A stretch of DNA of 64,000 nt from Longimicrobiales bacterium. GTDB taxonomy: Bacteria > Gemmatimonadota > Gemmatimonadetes > Longimicrobiales > Gaopeijiaceae. How positions within the stretch are numbered: the first letter of the stretch is position 1; each line of letters begins with the position of its first letter. Position numbers and translations under genes: made by a program. The stretch is from positions 864,001-928,000 of the forward strand of contig CBDDCX010000008.1 in NCBI GenBank assembly GCA_965226375.1, in the 5' to 3' direction. The notes below the pieces were generated by a model that worked only from the letters and a program-made list of their open reading frames with translations, was not told where the DNA came from and did not search any database. Shown in pieces: positions 21,984 through 39,816 of this stretch.

Positions 21984-22691
21984 ATGATCACGCCTGTGTA
22001 CGAGGCACGGCTCGAGCGTTCCCTCGGGGAGATCCAACAGCGGATCGCCCGGGCGGCCGAACGGAGTGGGCGGGCTTCCGACGACGTGACTTTGGTAGCG
22101 GTGACCAAGGCGCATACCTTGCAGGCCGTTCACGCTGCGGTCGCGCATGGCCTCTTTGATCTGGGAGAGAACCGGGTCGAGGATCTTACTGAGAAGGCCA
22201 CTGCGGTCGGGGACGAACGGGTGCGCTGGCATATGATCGGCCACGTGCAACGTCGCAAGGCACCGCACCTCGTGGGCGTGGCCGGGCTGGTCCATTCGAT
22301 CGACTCGCTGCGATTGGCTCAACGCCTCTCGAACGCGGCGGAAGTGGCCGACGAGACTCAGCCTGTGCTGATTCAGGTGAACACCTCCGGCGAGGAGACC
22401 AAGGGCGGTCTCCCGGGTCGGGAGATGGGAGACGATCTTCGAGGTATCCTGGCTTTACCGGGACTGGAGATCAGGGGCCTCATGACCATGGCTCCGTTTA
22501 CCGATGACGAGGCGGTGGTGCGAGGCACGTTTCGAGCTTTGCGCGAGCTCAATGACGAGCTCCGGGATATGGATGGATACGTTGGAGAAGAGCTCTCGAT
22601 GGGAATGACCAACGACTTCGAGATTGCGATTGAGGAAGGCAGCACGATGATACGCTTAGGGACCGCTCTGTTTGGGAGGCGCACGGCATGA
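21984..22691 (+). CDS. yggS: YggS family PLP-binding protein
   Basis: LVAVTK, GENRV, WHMIGH.Q, GLMTM, LSMGMTND, IRLGTALFG. Confidence 0.95.
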   Translation: MITPVYEARLERSLGEIQQRIARAAERSGRASDDVTLVAVTKAHTLQAVHAAVAHGLFDLGENRVEDLTEKATAVGDERVRWHMIGHVQRRKAPHLVGVAGLVHSIDSLRLAQRLSNAAEVADETQPVLIQVNTSGEETKGGLPGREMGDDLRGILALPGLEIRGLMTMAPFTDDEAVVRGTFRALRELNDELRDMDGYVGEELSMGMTNDFEIAIEEGSTMIRLGTALFGRRTA

Positions 22692-23509
22692 TCGAGCTCA
22701 CACCGCTGGACGTACGGAAGAAGCGAGGCGGCTTCGCCAAGGCTCTCCGTGGCTACGAAGCCCAGGAGGTGGACCTATTCCTCGAGGTCGTGGCTGAGCG
22801 GATGGAGGTGCTGGTCAAGGAGAACCTCCAGCTGAAGGAGCGTTCTGAAAGGCTCGGGGAGCAGGTGAAGGGGCAGGAAGGACGTGAACACGCCGTGCAG
22901 GAGGCACTGGTAACGGCTCAAGAACTCCGCGAGGAGGTGAAGGTCCAGGCCAAGCGTGAGGCAGAACTCCTGGAGAGGGAGGCACGTGGCCGCATTGAGC
23001 GGATGCTGCACGAAGCCGACAAACTCCTTGGTGAACGCCAGTCCGCGCTCGAGGAGCTGGAGAGACACCGTACCCGCTTCCTCAAGGCTTTTCGAACCCT
23101 TCTGGAGAGAGAGCTGGACGCGGTCGAGGTGGAGTCCAGCCGAACTCCCCTCGAAGATGTCACGCTCGATCTCGAGTTGGGGCGGGGCAGTTGGACGGCT
23201 CAGGAGGTCGTCGAGGACGGCGAGGCGGAGGTGCCGATCGACGAGGGCGAAGCGTCGGACGGGGTGGTCTCCGACAGTGACCCCGGTGCCGAAGCGGTAG
23301 ACCCCCGCGCGGCTCAAGAGGCGGATGAGGATGCTTCAGAGCCGGAGGCACCCGATCTCCAGGCAGAATCGCCTACCGAGGAGTCCGGGACGATAGCCGA
23401 GGCCGATGTGGTCGAGGACGCCGGTATCGATGCCGACAAGGCTGCTGACGCTGAGAGCTCGCTATGGCTTTCCTCGATCTTGAAGCGAGACCAACAGGAG
23501 TCCGATTGA
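22688..23509 (+). CDS. DivIVA domain protein with acidic tail
   Basis: LTPLDVRKK..F..ALRGY...EVD.FL N-terminus, then coiled coil. Confidence 0.9.
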   Translation: MIELTPLDVRKKRGGFAKALRGYEAQEVDLFLEVVAERMEVLVKENLQLKERSERLGEQVKGQEGREHAVQEALVTAQELREEVKVQAKREAELLEREARGRIERMLHEADKLLGERQSALEELERHRTRFLKAFRTLLERELDAVEVESSRTPLEDVTLDLELGRGSWTAQEVVEDGEAEVPIDEGEASDGVVSDSDPGAEAVDPRAAQEADEDASEPEAPDLQAESPTEESGTIAEADVVEDAGIDADKAADAESSLWLSSILKRDQQESD

Positions 23510-28536: not shown

Positions 28537-30477
28537 GTGGTAGCGACGGATCTAGACCCGAGGTTCACCTTCGACAGCTTCGTCGTGGGGCCTGCCCATC
28601 GGCTCGCATCGGCGGCAGCACGGCGGGCAGCCGACGCCCCCGGCACCTCGTATAACCCACTCTTCATCTATTCCGGATCGGGCCTGGGCAAGAGCCATAT
28701 TCTCAGCGGCATCGCCCACTACGCGACGAAGGTCCACCCGGAGTACGGTGTGGTCTACCTCGCGGTCGAGGTCTTCCTCGATGAGCTGACACGCGCCCTG
28801 GAGGCCGGCACCCAGGACGAGATGCGCGAGCAGTACGAGGAGCTTCACATTCTGCTTCTCGACGACGTGCAGTTCCTGACGGGGCAGAAGGAGGCCCAGG
28901 AGATGCTGCTGCGCCTCCTGGACCAGCTCAGCGCATCCGGCGGTCAGATTGTCCTGGCCAGTGATCGCCCACCGTCGGAGATCGACGGTCTCGACGAGCG
29001 TCTTGTCACGCGGTTCTCCGGAGGCTTGATCGTCGATATTGCGGCTCCGGAGTACGAGACCAAGGTCGCGATTCTCCGCAAGAAGGCGGAGGAGCGCGGT
29101 CAGATCTTCGAGGCGGGGGTGGCCGAAGCACTGGCCAAGAACTCTTTCAAGAGCGTCCGTGAGCTTGCCGGTGCCCTCAACAAGGTGCTGGCGATCCAGG
29201 AGCTCGAGGGTAGACAGGTCACGGTCGACGAGATCAAGGGCATGCCCGGGCTTCAGGCCGACTCCCCGGCTGAAGGCCCCGTCGCCGGGCAGCAGCTCCT
29301 GGACGAATTCGGTTCGTTCATGGAGGAACTGAGCCAGACGGTGGCCACGAAGGTCGAGCGGGAAGAGGCTCCGTGGAGGAGGGTGCTCAGGGAAACGGTA
29401 GAGACGTTCGAAAAGGATGGGTATTCCGGGACCCGCCTCCGCATGATGTTCGAGTCAGATAAGGCCCCTGACGATCCGCAGGCGATGGCTGATGAGTTCC
29501 GACGGGACATCACTCGACTGCGCCAAATCGGTAAGGCACTCGACCGGGTCGGGAATCCGTGGCCCGAGGCCGCAATCGGCCTCCTGAAGGATCCTGAGCG
29601 ACTGGATGAGGCCGAGTCTCTGCTCGCCTCCGCGATGGAGCGCGTGCGCCCCTGCCCGCTTATTGGTGAGGGACCGCTGCTCGAAGACCTGGAGGCCCAC
29701 TACCCCGCAGTGGCACTGAAGGCGGCTCAACAGTTGGTCACGGAGGAGCGCCCGGAGTACAACCCTCTCTACGTGTGGAGCGCGCAGCCTGACGGACCGA
29801 TGGCCCTATTGGGGGCTACGGCTCGGACCTATAGGGACCACGACAAGCTCGGGAACTACGCCATCGTGTCCGCGAAGGAGTTTTCGGAAGATTTCATTCG
29901 GGCGCTGTCCGATGGGGTGGCGGGTGCCTGGAGAGAGCGTTGGTGGGGTGTCGATCTCCTCCTGGTGTATGATGCCCAGGCGCTCTCCGACACGGAGCGG
30001 GCACAGGACGAGTTTTTCCACCTCCCCGAGGCGTCCAAGCGTAAGGGAGCCAAGATCCTCATTACGGCGGATCGAGAGCCGTCAGGGATCACCGGCATCG
30101 ACGATCGCCTACGCTCTCGCTTCGAGATGGGTTTGGTCGTGGAAGGCACGGTTGACTCGCTGCCTTCCGGAGCGGGTACGTTGAACCTCGAGGACGCACC
30201 ACCGGAATACATCCAGGACGAGGATCTTTGGTCTGGGTTCATCCGGCCCAAGGTCGGAGCTGTTGTCGTTCCCCCACTTGATGAACTCGAGGTGGGGGAT
30301 CGGGCCGGAATGATCATCATGGAGCCTGAGGTAGTGGCCGCCGAGGTGGAGGAGGTCGAGCCGGATGCCACGCCAACAGCCGATCCGGGCTCCCCGTGGA
30401 GTCCCTCCAGGGAAAACGTGGTTTGGGACTGGCCGGTCATCGAGGACCGCATCGTGGACGTCGACAAGGGAGACTAG
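28537..30477 (+). CDS. DnaA/Hda-family protein: two DnaA-type AAA+ modules, no domains I/II or IV
   Basis: FTFDSFVVG, YNPLFIY, GSGLGKS, LLLDDVQFL, SDRPP, RLVTRF, SVRELAGAL; second degenerate module YNPLYVW...ADREP...DRLRSRF. Confidence 0.85.
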   Translation: MVATDLDPRFTFDSFVVGPAHRLASAAARRAADAPGTSYNPLFIYSGSGLGKSHILSGIAHYATKVHPEYGVVYLAVEVFLDELTRALEAGTQDEMREQYEELHILLLDDVQFLTGQKEAQEMLLRLLDQLSASGGQIVLASDRPPSEIDGLDERLVTRFSGGLIVDIAAPEYETKVAILRKKAEERGQIFEAGVAEALAKNSFKSVRELAGALNKVLAIQELEGRQVTVDEIKGMPGLQADSPAEGPVAGQQLLDEFGSFMEELSQTVATKVEREEAPWRRVLRETVETFEKDGYSGTRLRMMFESDKAPDDPQAMADEFRRDITRLRQIGKALDRVGNPWPEAAIGLLKDPERLDEAESLLASAMERVRPCPLIGEGPLLEDLEAHYPAVALKAAQQLVTEERPEYNPLYVWSAQPDGPMALLGATARTYRDHDKLGNYAIVSAKEFSEDFIRALSDGVAGAWRERWWGVDLLLVYDAQALSDTERAQDEFFHLPEASKRKGAKILITADREPSGITGIDDRLRSRFEMGLVVEGTVDSLPSGAGTLNLEDAPPEYIQDEDLWSGFIRPKVGAVVVPPLDELEVGDRAGMIIMEPEVVAAEVEEVEPDATPTADPGSPWSPSRENVVWDWPVIEDRIVDVDKGD

Positions 30478-30483
30478 GGTGAT

Positions 30484-32100
30484 ATGGCGATTGAAGGTGC
30501 TCTCGCAGACGTCAGCTTGGCGGACATCTCCCAACTGCTGGCCATGGGGGGTAAGACCGGCTGCCTGTCACTCACGGACCAGTCCAATTTCGGCTACATC
30601 TACTTCGATGCCGGTCGGGTCGTTTACGCGTCGGTGGTAAATCGCCCGGACCGCCTCGGCGAGCTTCTGGTTAAGAACAATGTCATCGATCGGGAACAGC
30701 TCTCGGTGGCCATGGAGAGGCAGGCGCACGAGAAGGGCAAGAAGCTGGGTGAGTTGTTGGTGGACGGCGGGGCCCTGACCCAGGAGGATCTCGAGCGGTA
30801 CATCTCCATGCAGATCGAAGAGGCCGTCTACCACGTCTTCCAGTGGAACCAGGGTACCTTCCAGTTCCAACCCGACATCAAGCCTGAAGAGCACGTGATG
30901 CGGGTGTCCATCAGCATCGACGCGCTCCTGATGGAGGGAGCCCGTCGCGTGGACGAGTGGAGCCTCATCGAGAAGAAGATCTCTTCCATGGACCTGATCT
31001 TCGCGCTCGAGCGGGACCCACGTCAGGAAGAAGGGATCGACCTCACCGATGGCCAGCAGCGCATTGTCCCACTCATCGACGGGAAGCGCTCGGTGGGCGA
31101 CCTCGTGGACGAGTCGGGACTGGTGGAGTTCGACACTGGCAAGGCGCTGTACGGACTCATCCAGGCGGGTTTCGCGGTCCAGATAGGTAAGCGAGCCGCG
31201 GAGTCGAAGGTAAAGGGCTCTGTGGACGAGCACCTCAACCTCGGCTTGGCGTTTTACCGGTCGGGGATGCTCGAGGACGCCATACGGGAGTTTCGGAAGA
31301 CCCTCGAGCTGGAGGTGAAGCACCCCCAAGCGCGGGCGTATCTCGGCCTCATCAGCCTCAAGTCAGGGCGGTCGCAAGAGGCGAGCGTGCACTTCGACGA
31401 GATGGGCGAAGGCGCCGAGATGACCTATCCGCTCCAACGGAACCGTGCGTTGGCACTCGAGCGGATTGGGCGTTACGAAGAGTCGCTCGCGGTGCTGGAA
31501 GAGGCCGAGAAACTCGATGGAGACGACCCCGGTCTTCTGCTTGCCCGCGGGATCGTGCAGTTCAAGGCTGGGGACGGAGCCGCCGCTATGGGCGCGTTCA
31601 AGGGCTACCAAGACGGGGTCGGGGATGAGGCTCTGTCGCCGGTGTTCTTTGCGTTCTCAGTGCTGGCGGCGGGGATCGCGGGTGACATGGATCGTGCGGT
31701 CGAGATCGGTCGTGAGGGCCTGAAGCAGTATCCCGATAACGGGGCGATCCTGGTGAACACCGGAGCCGTTCTGGAGCATCGCGGAGAGAACGAAGCGGCC
31801 GAGAGTTACTACGAGCGGGCTTTGGAGAATAAGCCCGTGGTGCCGCAGGCACACAAAGCGTTGGGTGACCAGGCTCTACGTCGTGGAGACAAGGAACGGG
31901 CGCAGGCTCAGTACCAGCTCGCCGTGGAGGCGGATCCTAGGCTTGGAGAAGACGTCTACATCAAGCTCGGCGCCATGGCCCTCGAGAACTCCCAGACGGC
32001 CGAGGCAGGGGCTTTGTGGCGGCGTGCCCTCGAGATCAACCCCGAGAACCACGCGCTTCAGGCCAAGCTCGATCAGATCGGAGCGTCTGAAGGAGCGTGA
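30484..32100 (+). CDS. DUF4388 (PatA-N-like) + MshEN/GSPII-N-like + TPR protein
   Basis: MAIEG.L.D.SLADI.QLL....KTG.L N-terminus, RLGELL/KLGELL repeats, several TPR motifs. Confidence 0.82.
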   Translation: MAIEGALADVSLADISQLLAMGGKTGCLSLTDQSNFGYIYFDAGRVVYASVVNRPDRLGELLVKNNVIDREQLSVAMERQAHEKGKKLGELLVDGGALTQEDLERYISMQIEEAVYHVFQWNQGTFQFQPDIKPEEHVMRVSISIDALLMEGARRVDEWSLIEKKISSMDLIFALERDPRQEEGIDLTDGQQRIVPLIDGKRSVGDLVDESGLVEFDTGKALYGLIQAGFAVQIGKRAAESKVKGSVDEHLNLGLAFYRSGMLEDAIREFRKTLELEVKHPQARAYLGLISLKSGRSQEASVHFDEMGEGAEMTYPLQRNRALALERIGRYEESLAVLEEAEKLDGDDPGLLLARGIVQFKAGDGAAAMGAFKGYQDGVGDEALSPVFFAFSVLAAGIAGDMDRAVEIGREGLKQYPDNGAILVNTGAVLEHRGENEAAESYYERALENKPVVPQAHKALGDQALRRGDKERAQAQYQLAVEADPRLGEDVYIKLGAMALENSQTAEAGALWRRALEINPENHALQAKLDQIGASEGA

Positions 32101-33056
32101 TCTCCGGGATCCTGGTCCTACTTCTCGGGATCGGGCAGAATACGCCGACGCAGGATCTGGGCGGGAGTAGCCGGCTCCACGGAACGCGGGTCACCGTATC
32201 CTTCATGGCGCCGGACTCGGGCAAGGCTGCACGCGTTCTGGAAGTTCTCGAAGCAGCACTCCCGTTGCCGGGACTGCCACCGGCGGTGCCTACTGGTGTT
32301 CTCCTTCACCTGGCGCCTGACGAGGCCGCGTTCGAGCAACTTACGGGAGGTAGGGCTCCCGACTGGGGAGCCGGGGTCGCTCTTCCGGCTCAAGCGACCA
32401 TCGTCATGCCCGCCTATGTGTCGGCGCGCGGCCGTGGGTGGAGTGACAACAAGGTCCTCCGCCACGAGTGGGCACACATCGGGTTGCACCAATACCTGGA
32501 GGGGCTCCGGATTCCTCGCTGGTTCTCCGAGGGCTATGCCCAGTGGGCCAGCGGAGGGTGGGACTGGTCCGAAGGCTGGAAACTCAGGGTCGCCTTGGCA
32601 AGGGATCGAAACCCCCTGGACTCACTCGATCTCTCGTGGCCACGTGACCAGGCGCGTGCCCGGACGGCCTATCTGCTCTCTGCTACGACCATCGAGTATC
32701 TGGTGGTCCAGAGCAGCCCCAGGGCGCTGGAGGTGCTGCTCGCGAGGTGGAAGGAAGAGGGCAACTTCGAGAGGGCGTTCCGATCCACTTTTGGCGTGAC
32801 CTCGGCTCAGTTCGAGGAGGACTGGCGGCGTTACGTGAAGGACCGATATGGCTGGGTCTTCGTGCTGTCACACTCTGCCGTGTTCTGGATGTTCCTGAGC
32901 CTGGCCCTAGCCGCCATGGTGGGGGTCCGCCGCCGAGCCCGTCGAGAACGGCTGGCCCGCTTGAGGGCCCTCGATGCCCCCGACGAGCCCAGCTTCTGGC
33001 TCGAAGACCCTTCTCGCACGGGCCCACCGGGACCCGACCCGGACGGGTCGGAGTAA
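32097..33056 (+). CDS. Peptidase MA-like (gluzincin) membrane protein
   Basis: LRHEWAH...PRWFSEGYA; signal peptide and C-terminal TM helix. Confidence 0.8.
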   Translation: MISGILVLLLGIGQNTPTQDLGGSSRLHGTRVTVSFMAPDSGKAARVLEVLEAALPLPGLPPAVPTGVLLHLAPDEAAFEQLTGGRAPDWGAGVALPAQATIVMPAYVSARGRGWSDNKVLRHEWAHIGLHQYLEGLRIPRWFSEGYAQWASGGWDWSEGWKLRVALARDRNPLDSLDLSWPRDQARARTAYLLSATTIEYLVVQSSPRALEVLLARWKEEGNFERAFRSTFGVTSAQFEEDWRRYVKDRYGWVFVLSHSAVFWMFLSLALAAMVGVRRRARRERLARLRALDAPDEPSFWLEDPSRTGPPGPDPDGSE

Positions 33057-38458: not shown

Positions 38459-39816
38459 GGGGGTCAAGTCCCGAGTTGTGTGTAAAAGTGAGAGGAAGCT
38501 CCTCGATGCTTCGGTTAGGCTGCCTTGGCGACCTCCTTGGGTTCGAGAAGCGTGAGATCGAGGTAGCGGCGTTCGCTCCAGACCGCAGTAGTCTTCAGAG
38601 CAACCGCGGTGATGAGGCGGAGCGCACTGGCTCGGTCGGGGAAGGCGCCGGCGCTCCGGATCCGACGCTTGATCTCGGTGTGCAGGCGCTCGAGGCTGTT
38701 CGTGGTGCGTAGCCTGGCCCAGTGGGGCTCGGGGAACGCGTAGAACTGGGTGGCGGCCGTGAAGCCCCGCTCGAGCACCTTCATTGCCTCGGGGAGCTCC
38801 TCTTGCCAGCGCGTCGTGATCTCGGCCAGGCGCTTCTTCGCCTCAGCGAGCCCGGGGGCCCGGAAGACGGCGGCAACCTCGCGCGCCACACGCTTGCGCA
38901 GGCGATGCGGGACCTTGGCCAGCACGTTGCGTTGCAGGTGCACGGTGCAGCGCTGACGGCGCACCTCAGGCAGGAAGCGGCGCACCGCAGCTGCCAGGCC
39001 CGCGTGCTTGTCGGCGATCACCAGTTCGACGCCGCTGAGACCTCGCTCCAGGAGCTGCTCGAGGAGCTCCGACCAACTGTCCTCTGACTCCTCAGGGCCT
39101 AGCGTGATGGCCAGGAGCCGGCGGTGACCGTCCGGATCCACCGCGTAGGCCACGAGCGCGCTCACGTTCTCGACCTTCCTGGCCCAGCGCGCATCGAGGA
39201 ACGTCGCGTCCAGATACAGATAGGGGTGAGGCCCCTCGATGGGTGCGCTCCGCAGCGCTTCTACAGCCCCATCGAGCCGCTTCGCGACCCGGCTTACCGT
39301 CGAGCGTCCCACGCGCTCACCCAGCAGTGCTTCAGTCACGTCGCCCATCTTGCGCTGCGACACACCGCTCACGTAGGCCTCCACCATCATCTCGTCCACT
39401 TCTTCACTCCTGCGCCGGTAGCGGCCCATCACGTCGGCGGGCGAGCCGCCTTCCCGGCTGCGCGGCACCATCACGTCGATCTGACCCAAGCTCGTGAGCA
39501 GGCGCCTGAGGTACGTGCCGTTCCTGTGGTCCTTCCGGCTGCCGACCCGCTCGAAACGACGCGCTCCGACCATCGCTTTCAACTCCTCCTCCAGCACCAT
39601 CTCGAGCGTAACACGAATCGCGCCCTGAAACAACGACTTCAAATCCTGCCGTAACTCTTCTTGCGTGGCCCGCTCAACTTCAACCATCTTTTCCATGAGG
39701 AAGCTCCTTTCCGGTTCCGGACCTGCTGGCGCAGGCCCGGACTCCCCGGGTTCGTGTCATGATGAACATTCACAAGGAGCTTCCTCTCTTTTTCCCGGGC
39801 TGTCCACCCTCCCCGG
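38459..39816 (-). mobile_element. IS256-family insertion sequence; upstream outer end apparently lost
   Basis: Intact transposase; terminal GGGGTCAAGTCCCGAGTTGTGTGTAAA; 14-bp inverted repeat GAGAGGAAGCTCCT at 38490-38503 / 39775-39788. Confidence 0.85.
38515..39696 (-). CDS. IS256-family (mutator-type) transposase
   Basis: RNG.Y.R.L.T.LG.I...VPR.R, YLYLDA, IADKH.GL, QRC.VH..RN, RTTNSLERL..EIKRR. Confidence 0.96.
   Translation of the reverse strand: MEKMVEVERATQEELRQDLKSLFQGAIRVTLEMVLEEELKAMVGARRFERVGSRKDHRNGTYLRRLLTSLGQIDVMVPRSREGGSPADVMGRYRRRSEEVDEMMVEAYVSGVSQRKMGDVTEALLGERVGRSTVSRVAKRLDGAVEALRSAPIEGPHPYLYLDATFLDARWARKVENVSALVAYAVDPDGHRRLLAITLGPEESEDSWSELLEQLLERGLSGVELVIADKHAGLAAAVRRFLPEVRRQRCTVHLQRNVLAKVPHRLRKRVAREVAAVFRAPGLAEAKKRLAEITTRWQEELPEAMKVLERGFTAATQFYAFPEPHWARLRTTNSLERLHTEIKRRIRSAGAFPDRASALRLITAVALKTTAVWSERRYLDLTLLEPKEVAKAA

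Follow-up and report, generated by a model that had tools for sequence, protein, structure and literature searches.

A 64-kb stretch of a Longimicrobiales bacterium genome (assembly GCA_965226375.1, contig CBDDCX010000008.1, positions 864,001-928,000 of the forward strand; hereafter the window, to which coordinates refer) encodes a 646-aa protein built from two copies of the ATPase domain (domain III) of the replication initiator DnaA, followed by a partner protein of PATAN-MshEN-TPR (tetratricopeptide repeat) architecture. The tandem architecture, the partition of DnaA interface residues between the two modules, and the coupling of the two genes mark a family that is real, conserved and undescribed in the searchable literature, and that brings a new architecture and a new partner to the initiator AAA+ clade. 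It is likely that the initiator ATPase core has been re-used as a switch in a polarity/chemotaxis-type gene cluster rather than for the start of replication. On balance, we favor a DnaA-derived two-module AAA+ switch that would be anchored in the partner's TPR groove through its C-terminal tail and serve a polarity/type IV pilus pathway linked to cyclic di-GMP (c-di-GMP). A polarity/c-di-GMP switch is the likeliest role, and regulation of DnaA is its main rival.

The tandem gene (28537-30477) has a GTG start, and the partner gene (30484-32100; 538 aa) starts 6 nt after it; both, with the features located within them, are on the + strand. Module 1 (aa 6-234; 28552-29238) is a complete domain III with Walker A (GSGLGKS, aa 47-53; 28675-28695), Walker B (LLLDD, aa 106-110; 28852-28866), sensor I, box VII (RLVTRF, aa 155-160), lid and sensor II (VREL, aa 207-210; 29155-29166), as read from sequence motifs and the family alignment. 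A helical linker domain (aa 252-376; 29290-29664) leads to module 2 (aa about 392-536; 29710-30144), which consists of domain IIIa only and has no P-loop, with box VII and its arginine finger retained as DRLRSRF (aa 523-529; 30103-30123). An earlier note on this DNA, the original prediction, had described the 646-aa open reading frame (ORF), the motifs of module 1, the missing Walker A and retained DRLRSRF of module 2, the helical linker and the next gene 6 nt later, and all of this was found. Beyond that description, the window's module 2 is missing Walker B and the lid/sensor II as well, and the extreme C-terminus carries a conserved W-motif (aa 620-642; 30394-30462) in a disordered tail, a predicted TPR-docking peptide.

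The Pfam family Bac_DnaA matches the tandem protein twice (aa 6-167 and about 392-536), and Bac_DnaA_C and DnaA_N do not match it at E<=0.1, as the original prediction had anticipated. No domain I or II lies upstream of module 1, domain III beginning at aa 6 of an open frame of just 648 aa, and no domain IV was found, there being no Bac_DnaA_C match and a C-terminal tail that is disordered in the model. The window genome has a single Bac_DnaA_C match, namely its canonical dnaA, which lies on contig C7, so that a true initiator is encoded elsewhere as the original prediction expected. The two modules are 32% identical to each other over 130 aa (E 6e-19), and module 1 and module 2 share 42% and 31% identity, respectively, with the genome's own DnaA. 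Module 1 aligns without gaps to residues 111-336 of Bacillus subtilis DnaA and module 2 to residues 135-276 (E 3.5e-22); these alignments supply the B. subtilis DnaA residue numbering used here. An AlphaFold2 model of the tandem protein (mean predicted local distance difference test score (pLDDT) 78.7, predicted template modeling score (pTM) 0.48) has the AAA+ alpha/beta pattern in both modules, as foreseen for the second half, a helical linker (aa 252-369 in the model) with pLDDT mostly about 90, and disorder from aa 567 to the C-terminus. Its closest fold matches are DnaA structures, and because pTM is 0.48 the placement of the domains is not fixed. By sequence and predicted fold the tandem protein is a member of the AAA+ initiator clade, with a domain III fold that includes the initiator-specific helices. 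Contigs from four runs of four studies span the stretch without indels, although one run may equal the source sample; the fusion is therefore not an assembly artifact.

We aligned 74 proteins of the class (the window protein and 73 of 90 family ORFs, after exclusion of 9 partial or frameshifted ORFs and 8 repeat or near-repeat rows) with 24 canonical DnaAs. Seventy of the 74 are tandem proteins, and since 36 of these 70 come from the window's lineage, the set used for the residue counts is biased. The portion of a DnaA filament study available names R202, R206, F218, H231, R264, L269, G317 and R321 as essential filament-interface residues and gives the interface residues in two runs, F128, L269, H231, R206, R202 and R264 versus R321, G317, F218, E183 and N187 (PMC6669920). 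From the order of the legend and general knowledge we infer that these runs represent the finger face and the ATP-pocket face. Module 1 has kept the catalytic residues (Walker A lysine and D214 each in 70/70, D215 in 68/70, sensor I in 69/70, sensor II in 64/70) together with the interface residues F218 (67/70), an acidic residue at 183 (65/70), G317 (63/70) and R or K at 321 (68/70), and it has lost H231 (R in 60/70), R206, I190, K222 and T225. The losses in module 2 are complementary: R260, R264 and L269 are each present in 70/70, R202 in 68/70, H231 in 50/70, and I or V at position 190 in 67/70 (59 I, 8 V), and F218 and E183 are gone throughout. R206 of module 2 is found in 32 of the 34 tandem proteins outside the window's lineage, and the position is W in 36/36 inside it; module 2 of the window keeps the equivalents of I190, R202, H231, R260, R264 and L269. 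The single-stranded DNA (ssDNA) residues I190, K222 and T225 and the full filament interface do not occur together on one module, being split or lost. The partition persists where module 2 still has a P-loop, and at the level of sequence it fits a built-in arginine-finger donor.

Module 2 has lost its P-loop in 38 tandem proteins, 36 of them in the window's lineage and two elsewhere, and a single loss was accordingly rejected. In both trees module 2 forms one clade (support 100/99 and 100/97), with a long branch leading to the P-loop-dead lineage. With broad outgroups the tree does not resolve how module 1, module 2 and DnaA are related, and a grouping of module 1 with single-module forms of two other classes (f11 and f12; support 98/99) was not reproduced with these broader DnaA outgroups. 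Codon 497 (30024-30026), in a helix of module 2, is Pro in the window copy and Phe in 62/70 relatives; two runs carry the window codon and one run the Phe codon, so that this is a real polymorphism.

The tail motif has the consensus ExVVWxWPxxEDR and lies within the last 30 aa of 69/74 proteins. A complex model of the partner's TPR domain (aa 245-538) with the tail (aa 610-646), of the kind the original prediction had proposed for the neighbor, gave an interface score (ipSAE) of 0.87 versus 0.35 for the best of three controls, with contacts agreeing by at least 87% between runs and a partner pLDDT of at least 70. In a benchmark, 116 of 157 solved pairs reach the ipSAE mark versus 2 of 215 mismatched pairs, counts that are only approximate here because our own alignments were used for the tail-TPR model. 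V628 and V629 of the tail contact N425, V424, A421 and Q455 in the model, and the nearest solved relatives are consensus TPRs, OGT and the Pex5 receptor. The tail is predicted to bind in the partner's TPR groove, which would make this a concrete and testable peptide interface. The f11/f12 forms, single-module DnaA-like proteins in five genomes of two other classes (open frames of 346-386 aa), have a related acidic W tail, and their gene is immediately followed by one for a TPR-only partner homolog in 5/5. In five of five genomes examined that have the partner and lack the ATPase, the partner ends early and loses the region around aa 487-491, which is contacted in the tail-TPR model; the MshEN insert is missing in four of these five.

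The partner consists of a PATAN (DUF4388) domain (aa 4-160; 30493-30963, from Pfam), an MshEN-type c-di-GMP motif inside it (aa 57-110; 30652-30813, NF053729) and a TPR domain (aa 245-538; 31216-32097) whose predicted W-motif groove makes contacts over aa 285-491. The DUF4388/MshEN-like/TPR composition named in the original prediction is thus borne out, NF053729 scoring 52.4 bits versus a cut-off of 38. The MshEN consensus, in the available part of the source, is two tandem 24-residue motifs of the form RLGxxLVxxG..LxxxLxxQ (PMC5013675), and the partner has two such motifs in tandem. Across relatives the first half begins with R[LI]G in 70/73 and ends with Q in 67/73; in the window partner, N replaces G in half 1 and K replaces R in half 2. 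Judged from these motifs, the partner would bind c-di-GMP, and there are 12 GGDEF matches in the window genome. PATAN domains bind PilB1/PilC in the cyanobacterium Synechocystis, according to the part of that report available (10.1101/2021.06.11.447907). The start of the partner lies within about 90 nt of the tandem gene in 73/73 loci, with a 1-nt overlap in 48.

The C-terminal 425 aa of the tandem protein matched 47 loci, of which 45 carry Gemmatimonadota-group titles, one is Planctomycetota (on a short contig) and one is unclassified; Longimicrobiales loci are the nearest. Among 201 evenly sampled Gemmatimonadota genomes, a linker-only profile was positive in 134: the two largest families gave 94/96 and 27/38, the window's family 2/24 besides the window genome, and five families none. 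In 130/134 the best match to the partner is found no more than 2.5 kb away, the other four being on different contigs, and mglA within 2.5 kb in 120/134 (both among the matches listed, with distances drawn from genome-match tables of the best 150 rows). These counts include G156, an unpublished genome, and become 133/200, 129/133 and 119/133 when it is removed. The 14 mglA exceptions are three window-family genomes, eight genomes of one genus, and three split contigs; one of the eight was checked and has a divergent mglA. The fusion and its neighborhood are therefore not confined to one assembly, and the synteny across the phylum that the original prediction proposed to check exists.

In the 20 regions read, the commonest gene order is rluA, cheW, cheY, cheA, cheC, TPR, PATAN-TPR, two roadblock genes, mglB, mglA, the tandem gene, the partner, cheR, cheD, cheB, cheW, TPR and peptidase MA. 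The cluster MglA of the relatives matches solved MglA at E 1e-76. The peptidase MA-like gene, which ends the cluster in most relatives, lies in the window at 32097-33056 (+ strand). The window's lineage has lost every gene that relatives carry between rluA and the tandem gene, as well as those separating partner and peptidase, with one locus retaining an mglB-like gene; since the flanking cluster was deleted on both sides, the tandem gene and its partner are the surviving unit. The window genome retains a separate mglA and pilT.

We suggest the following mechanism. Module 1, with all catalytic motifs kept, likely binds and hydrolyzes ATP, and the tandem protein likely acts as an ATP/ADP switch. 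Module 2 likely lends its arginine-finger face to module 1, as a neighboring subunit of a DnaA filament would, either within the same chain or head-to-tail between chains, and in the window's lineage it would have been stripped to that face alone. The C-terminal tail is predicted to tether the ATPase to the TPR groove of the partner, a PATAN-TPR scaffold of the c-di-GMP type, and the output is likely the pilus/polarity machinery. To our knowledge, the ATPases of the DnaA clade (DnaA, Hda, DnaC/DnaI, IstB) all act on DNA transactions; if true, the proposal would be the first use of an initiator ATPase outside DNA metabolism, or else a direct link between polarity and replication. The original prediction is sustained in its repurposed initiator fold, its conserved fusion and neighborhood, and its link to polarity/motility genes and a TPR partner, and only in part in its built-in arginine-finger activator.

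Several observations weigh against this mechanism. The complementary loss of interface residues favors the built-in activator, but the monomer model (pTM 0.48) leaves the geometry of module 1 to module 2 within one chain unfixed, and module 1 retains its own finger R264 in 67/70 and a basic residue at position 202 in most (48 R and 11 K of 70). Module 2 keeps its Walker A lysine in 32/70 and its lid in 23/70, and is wholly absent from 4/74 class members; the same decay series, a natural deletion series of complete, lidless, P-loop-dead and absent module 2, would show which DnaA surfaces are needed for activation in trans. The tail-TPR score may partly mirror known TPR-peptide complexes because TPR grooves bind peptides generically. 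The five ATPase-less genomes come from three genera within a single family and do not count as five independent events, and the argument from TPR truncation is weakened because the f11/f12 partners also lack the last TPR motif despite the presence of the ATPase gene. These partners are TPR only, without PATAN or MshEN, and as the f11/f12 pair sits among glycosyltransferase/dapF genes with no PATAN and no mglA in the context, the oldest role may not be motility. cheA, cheR, cheD, cheW and mglB were not found in the window genome (90% complete), so that the pair cannot work there with the ancestral cluster, and the only mglA left is the other copy. The distribution of pili does not follow that of the gene pair, pilT being present in 194/201 genomes; because it is nearly universal, the pilus link rests on neighborhood and domain content, not on co-occurrence.

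The alternative that survives best is that the tandem protein couples signaling to replication, tethered through the TPR/c-di-GMP partner and capping or discharging true DnaA filaments with an Hda-like finger from module 2. This would account for the better retention of the canonical finger-side residues in module 2 than in module 1, for the closeness of both modules to the genome's own DnaA, and for the persistence of the pair after the loss of all che genes in the window's lineage. We consider it unlikely, however, because the beta-clamp-binding motif is found in 0 of 79 proteins, DnaA boxes number 0 in the 8 kb around the gene versus 3 near dnaA, no replication gene is among the conserved neighbors, and the linker profile is negative in 67/201 genomes, including single-contig genomes of the same family. 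Moreover, the face retained by module 1 is exactly the complementary one, a sign that the two modules serve each other.

It is distinctly improbable that the tandem protein of the window's lineage serves mainly as a structural adaptor, or persists as a relic of the lost che/mglBA cluster, and has little ATPase function that is regulated. The cluster is indeed gone on both sides of the pair, the pair is missing from most of the family's sampled genomes, the proline at codon 497 is polymorphic among runs, and frameshifts occur at five loci. However, K157, D214 and D248 of module 1 are intact in 36/36 proteins of the lineage, the P-loop-dead module 2 equals module 1 in conservation (mean identity 0.64 versus 0.63), and its W at position 206 is a new invariant residue; the frameshifted loci also split unrelated neighbors, which points to assembly error. 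Equally improbable is a sensor or binder of ssDNA, for instance of pilus-imported DNA, acting through the initiator-specific motif of module 2: of the DnaA ssDNA residues I190, K222 and T225 (10.1101/2022.03.18.484894, available in part), module 2 keeps the first and, outside the window's lineage, K222 in 19/34 and T225 in 23/34, but module 1 has none of the three, module 2 of the window's lineage has T222 and A225 (35/36 each), the motif is missing from the single-module members, and DnaA binds ssDNA as an extended filament, which split faces would limit.

The linker has no Pfam match, and no Pfam family is common to more than two of 42 members. Its best fold-search matches are EzrA (Z 6.6, root-mean-square deviation (rmsd) 11.1, 116 aligned) and EbhA (Z 6.2, rmsd 3.4, 96 aligned), scores that are ordinary for helical bundles. 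A search of 1.84 billion representatives gave 493 matches at E<=0.001, and the best 150 of these include, besides family members, at least 31 long proteins, picked for 4-26 copies of the repeat. Among the matches listed, DnaA domain III follows the repeats in 7 of the 31, mostly with zinc ribbons, and no domain IV was scored in these seven. Those long proteins that come with a source label belong mostly to Thermoplasmata/Thermoplasmatota; two are labeled Wallbacteria and one Methylacidiphilaceae. Of the DnaA-bearing rod clusters just two have a label, in both cases from the Thermoplasmata group. With a profile built from 72 rod repeats, the window linker is the sole significant match among 39,802 genome ORFs (E 2.7e-4), and 46/74 family proteins reach at least 20 bits versus 0/74 reversed sequences. 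By these profile matches the window linker is a single copy of the repeat unit that is tandem in Thermoplasmata-labeled rod proteins.

Two metagenome scans found no DNA around the archaeal-type rod proteins, and the origin of the rods accordingly rests on the labels of the two DnaA-bearing clusters. A shared origin of module 2 and the rod AAA+ domain was not supported; because they do not group in the tree, the pairing of linker and DnaA may have arisen twice. The rod proteins' N-terminal domain gives E 0.009 and a probability of 4% in comparison with PATAN. Rod proteins P0242, P0243, P0249, P0251, P0288, P0343, P0355 and P0398-P0401 have helical repeats and zinc ribbons with a near-canonical DnaA domain III, and I190, K222 and T225 are kept in most; those with a label are assigned to Thermoplasmata, and a paralog without DnaA appears to lie on a contig of equal length to that of one of them. 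It is conceivable, and we offer it tentatively, that the tandem protein is a self-contained two-subunit slice of a DnaA filament, with the ATP face on module 1 and the finger face on module 2, hanging by its C-terminal peptide from a TPR scaffold that senses c-di-GMP and serving as nucleotide timer for a polarity circuit of the MglA/chemosensory kind. It would share its repeat spacer with archaeal rods that likewise recruited DnaA domain III, and belong to a widespread, undescribed class of non-replicative DnaA-core machines.

Some further observations concern the surroundings. The CheA of the Gemmatimonadetes che cluster (loci L084-L103) is closest to a halophile-type model and is accompanied by CheC and CheD; no chemoreceptor gene is among the labeled ORFs of this cluster. 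The remaining mglA of the window genome (L053 8808-9386) has dnaX-ybaB-recR-like genes and pgsA as neighbors; no mglB was detected, and this MglA would lack its customary GAP. A frameshift interrupts a second pilT-family gene (G000:C2:31140-32172). Two large TPR genes some 50-55 kb ahead of the window on the same contig (L052 8699-15812, G000 C8) resemble the TPR members of the lost cluster and may be separate paralogs. A yggS-divIVA pair (window 21984-23509) lies upstream of ileS at the host locus; the yggS-divIVA-ileS-rluA context was set aside as evidence, as it also occurs at loci that have lost the tandem gene. A contig of run X3 joins across 29133-31972, skipping 2838 nt, with a short side of only 30 letters; this could be a strain deletion of the gene pair, or chance. 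A scan for promoters and terminators gave counts no better than chance (4 vs 2.2; 12 vs 8.3). The transposase-like ORF at 38515-39696, with copies in related loci, is presumably IS256-like.

Compared with known systems, the tandem protein is closest to DnaA (TIGR00362; PF11638, PF00308 and PF08299; PDB 8btg, 8bv3, 2hcb, 3r8f, 2z4r), with which both modules share domain III sequence and fold. It scores 358.9 bits versus the TIGR00362 cut-off of 343.9 only because the scores of the two modules add up, module 1 alone reaching 268. Unlike DnaA, it has no domain I, II or IV, has two modules with the interface residues split between them, carries a novel linker and a predicted TPR-docking tail, and is encoded away from the origin with the canonical dnaA separate. 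Hda acts in trans on DnaA. Like Hda (TIGR03420; PDB 5x06, 3bos), the tandem protein is a DnaA-clade AAA+ protein that lacks DnaA-box binding and keeps an arginine finger; however, it scores 116.2 bits versus the TIGR03420 cut-off of 194.8, shows no clamp motif (0 of the 79 proteins), is closer to DnaA than to Hda, and has the putative finger donor and acceptor in one chain. The label "Hda-like" in the original prediction does not hold as membership of Hda, and on the tested features (no domain IV; a TIGR03420 score below the cut-off and no clamp motif) an identity with either DnaA or Hda is rejected. In the Thermoplasmata rod proteins the same helical repeat unit precedes a DnaA domain III that has no domain IV, but these proteins differ in having 6-8 detected repeats, one AAA+ module and zinc ribbons.

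In Myxococcus, MglA reportedly acts through a TPR protein on type IV pili (PMC7519303, PMC7668184). The relatives' cluster resembles the MglA/MglB-SgmX system of Myxococcus xanthus in encoding MglA, MglB and TPR/PATAN proteins; the partner, in contrast, scores 15.8 bits versus a SgmX cut-off of 1800, and mglB and the che genes were not found in the window genome. No DnaA-type ATPase is named for the MglA/SgmX system in the literature reached, in the parts available, and literature searches, with subscription papers mostly outside their coverage, found no paper on the tandem DnaA-core family. The available part of one survey has MglA adjoining PATAN genes and gives the Gemmatimonas aurantiaca neighborhood as PATAN>MglA>-PATAN>, with no DnaA domain named there (PMC4316618); we read the dash as the tandem DnaA-core gene. 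Cultured Gemmatimonas strains appear from the available part of its supplement to carry the cluster (PMC4316618), and the proposal is hence testable there. The partner itself is like PATAN regulators and MshEN receptors in having a PATAN domain with a helical MshEN insertion and a near-consensus pair of 24-residue motifs, and unlike them in that it has no receiver domain, its second half-motif begins with K in the window, and its C-terminal TPR is predicted to hold the tail of an AAA+ protein.

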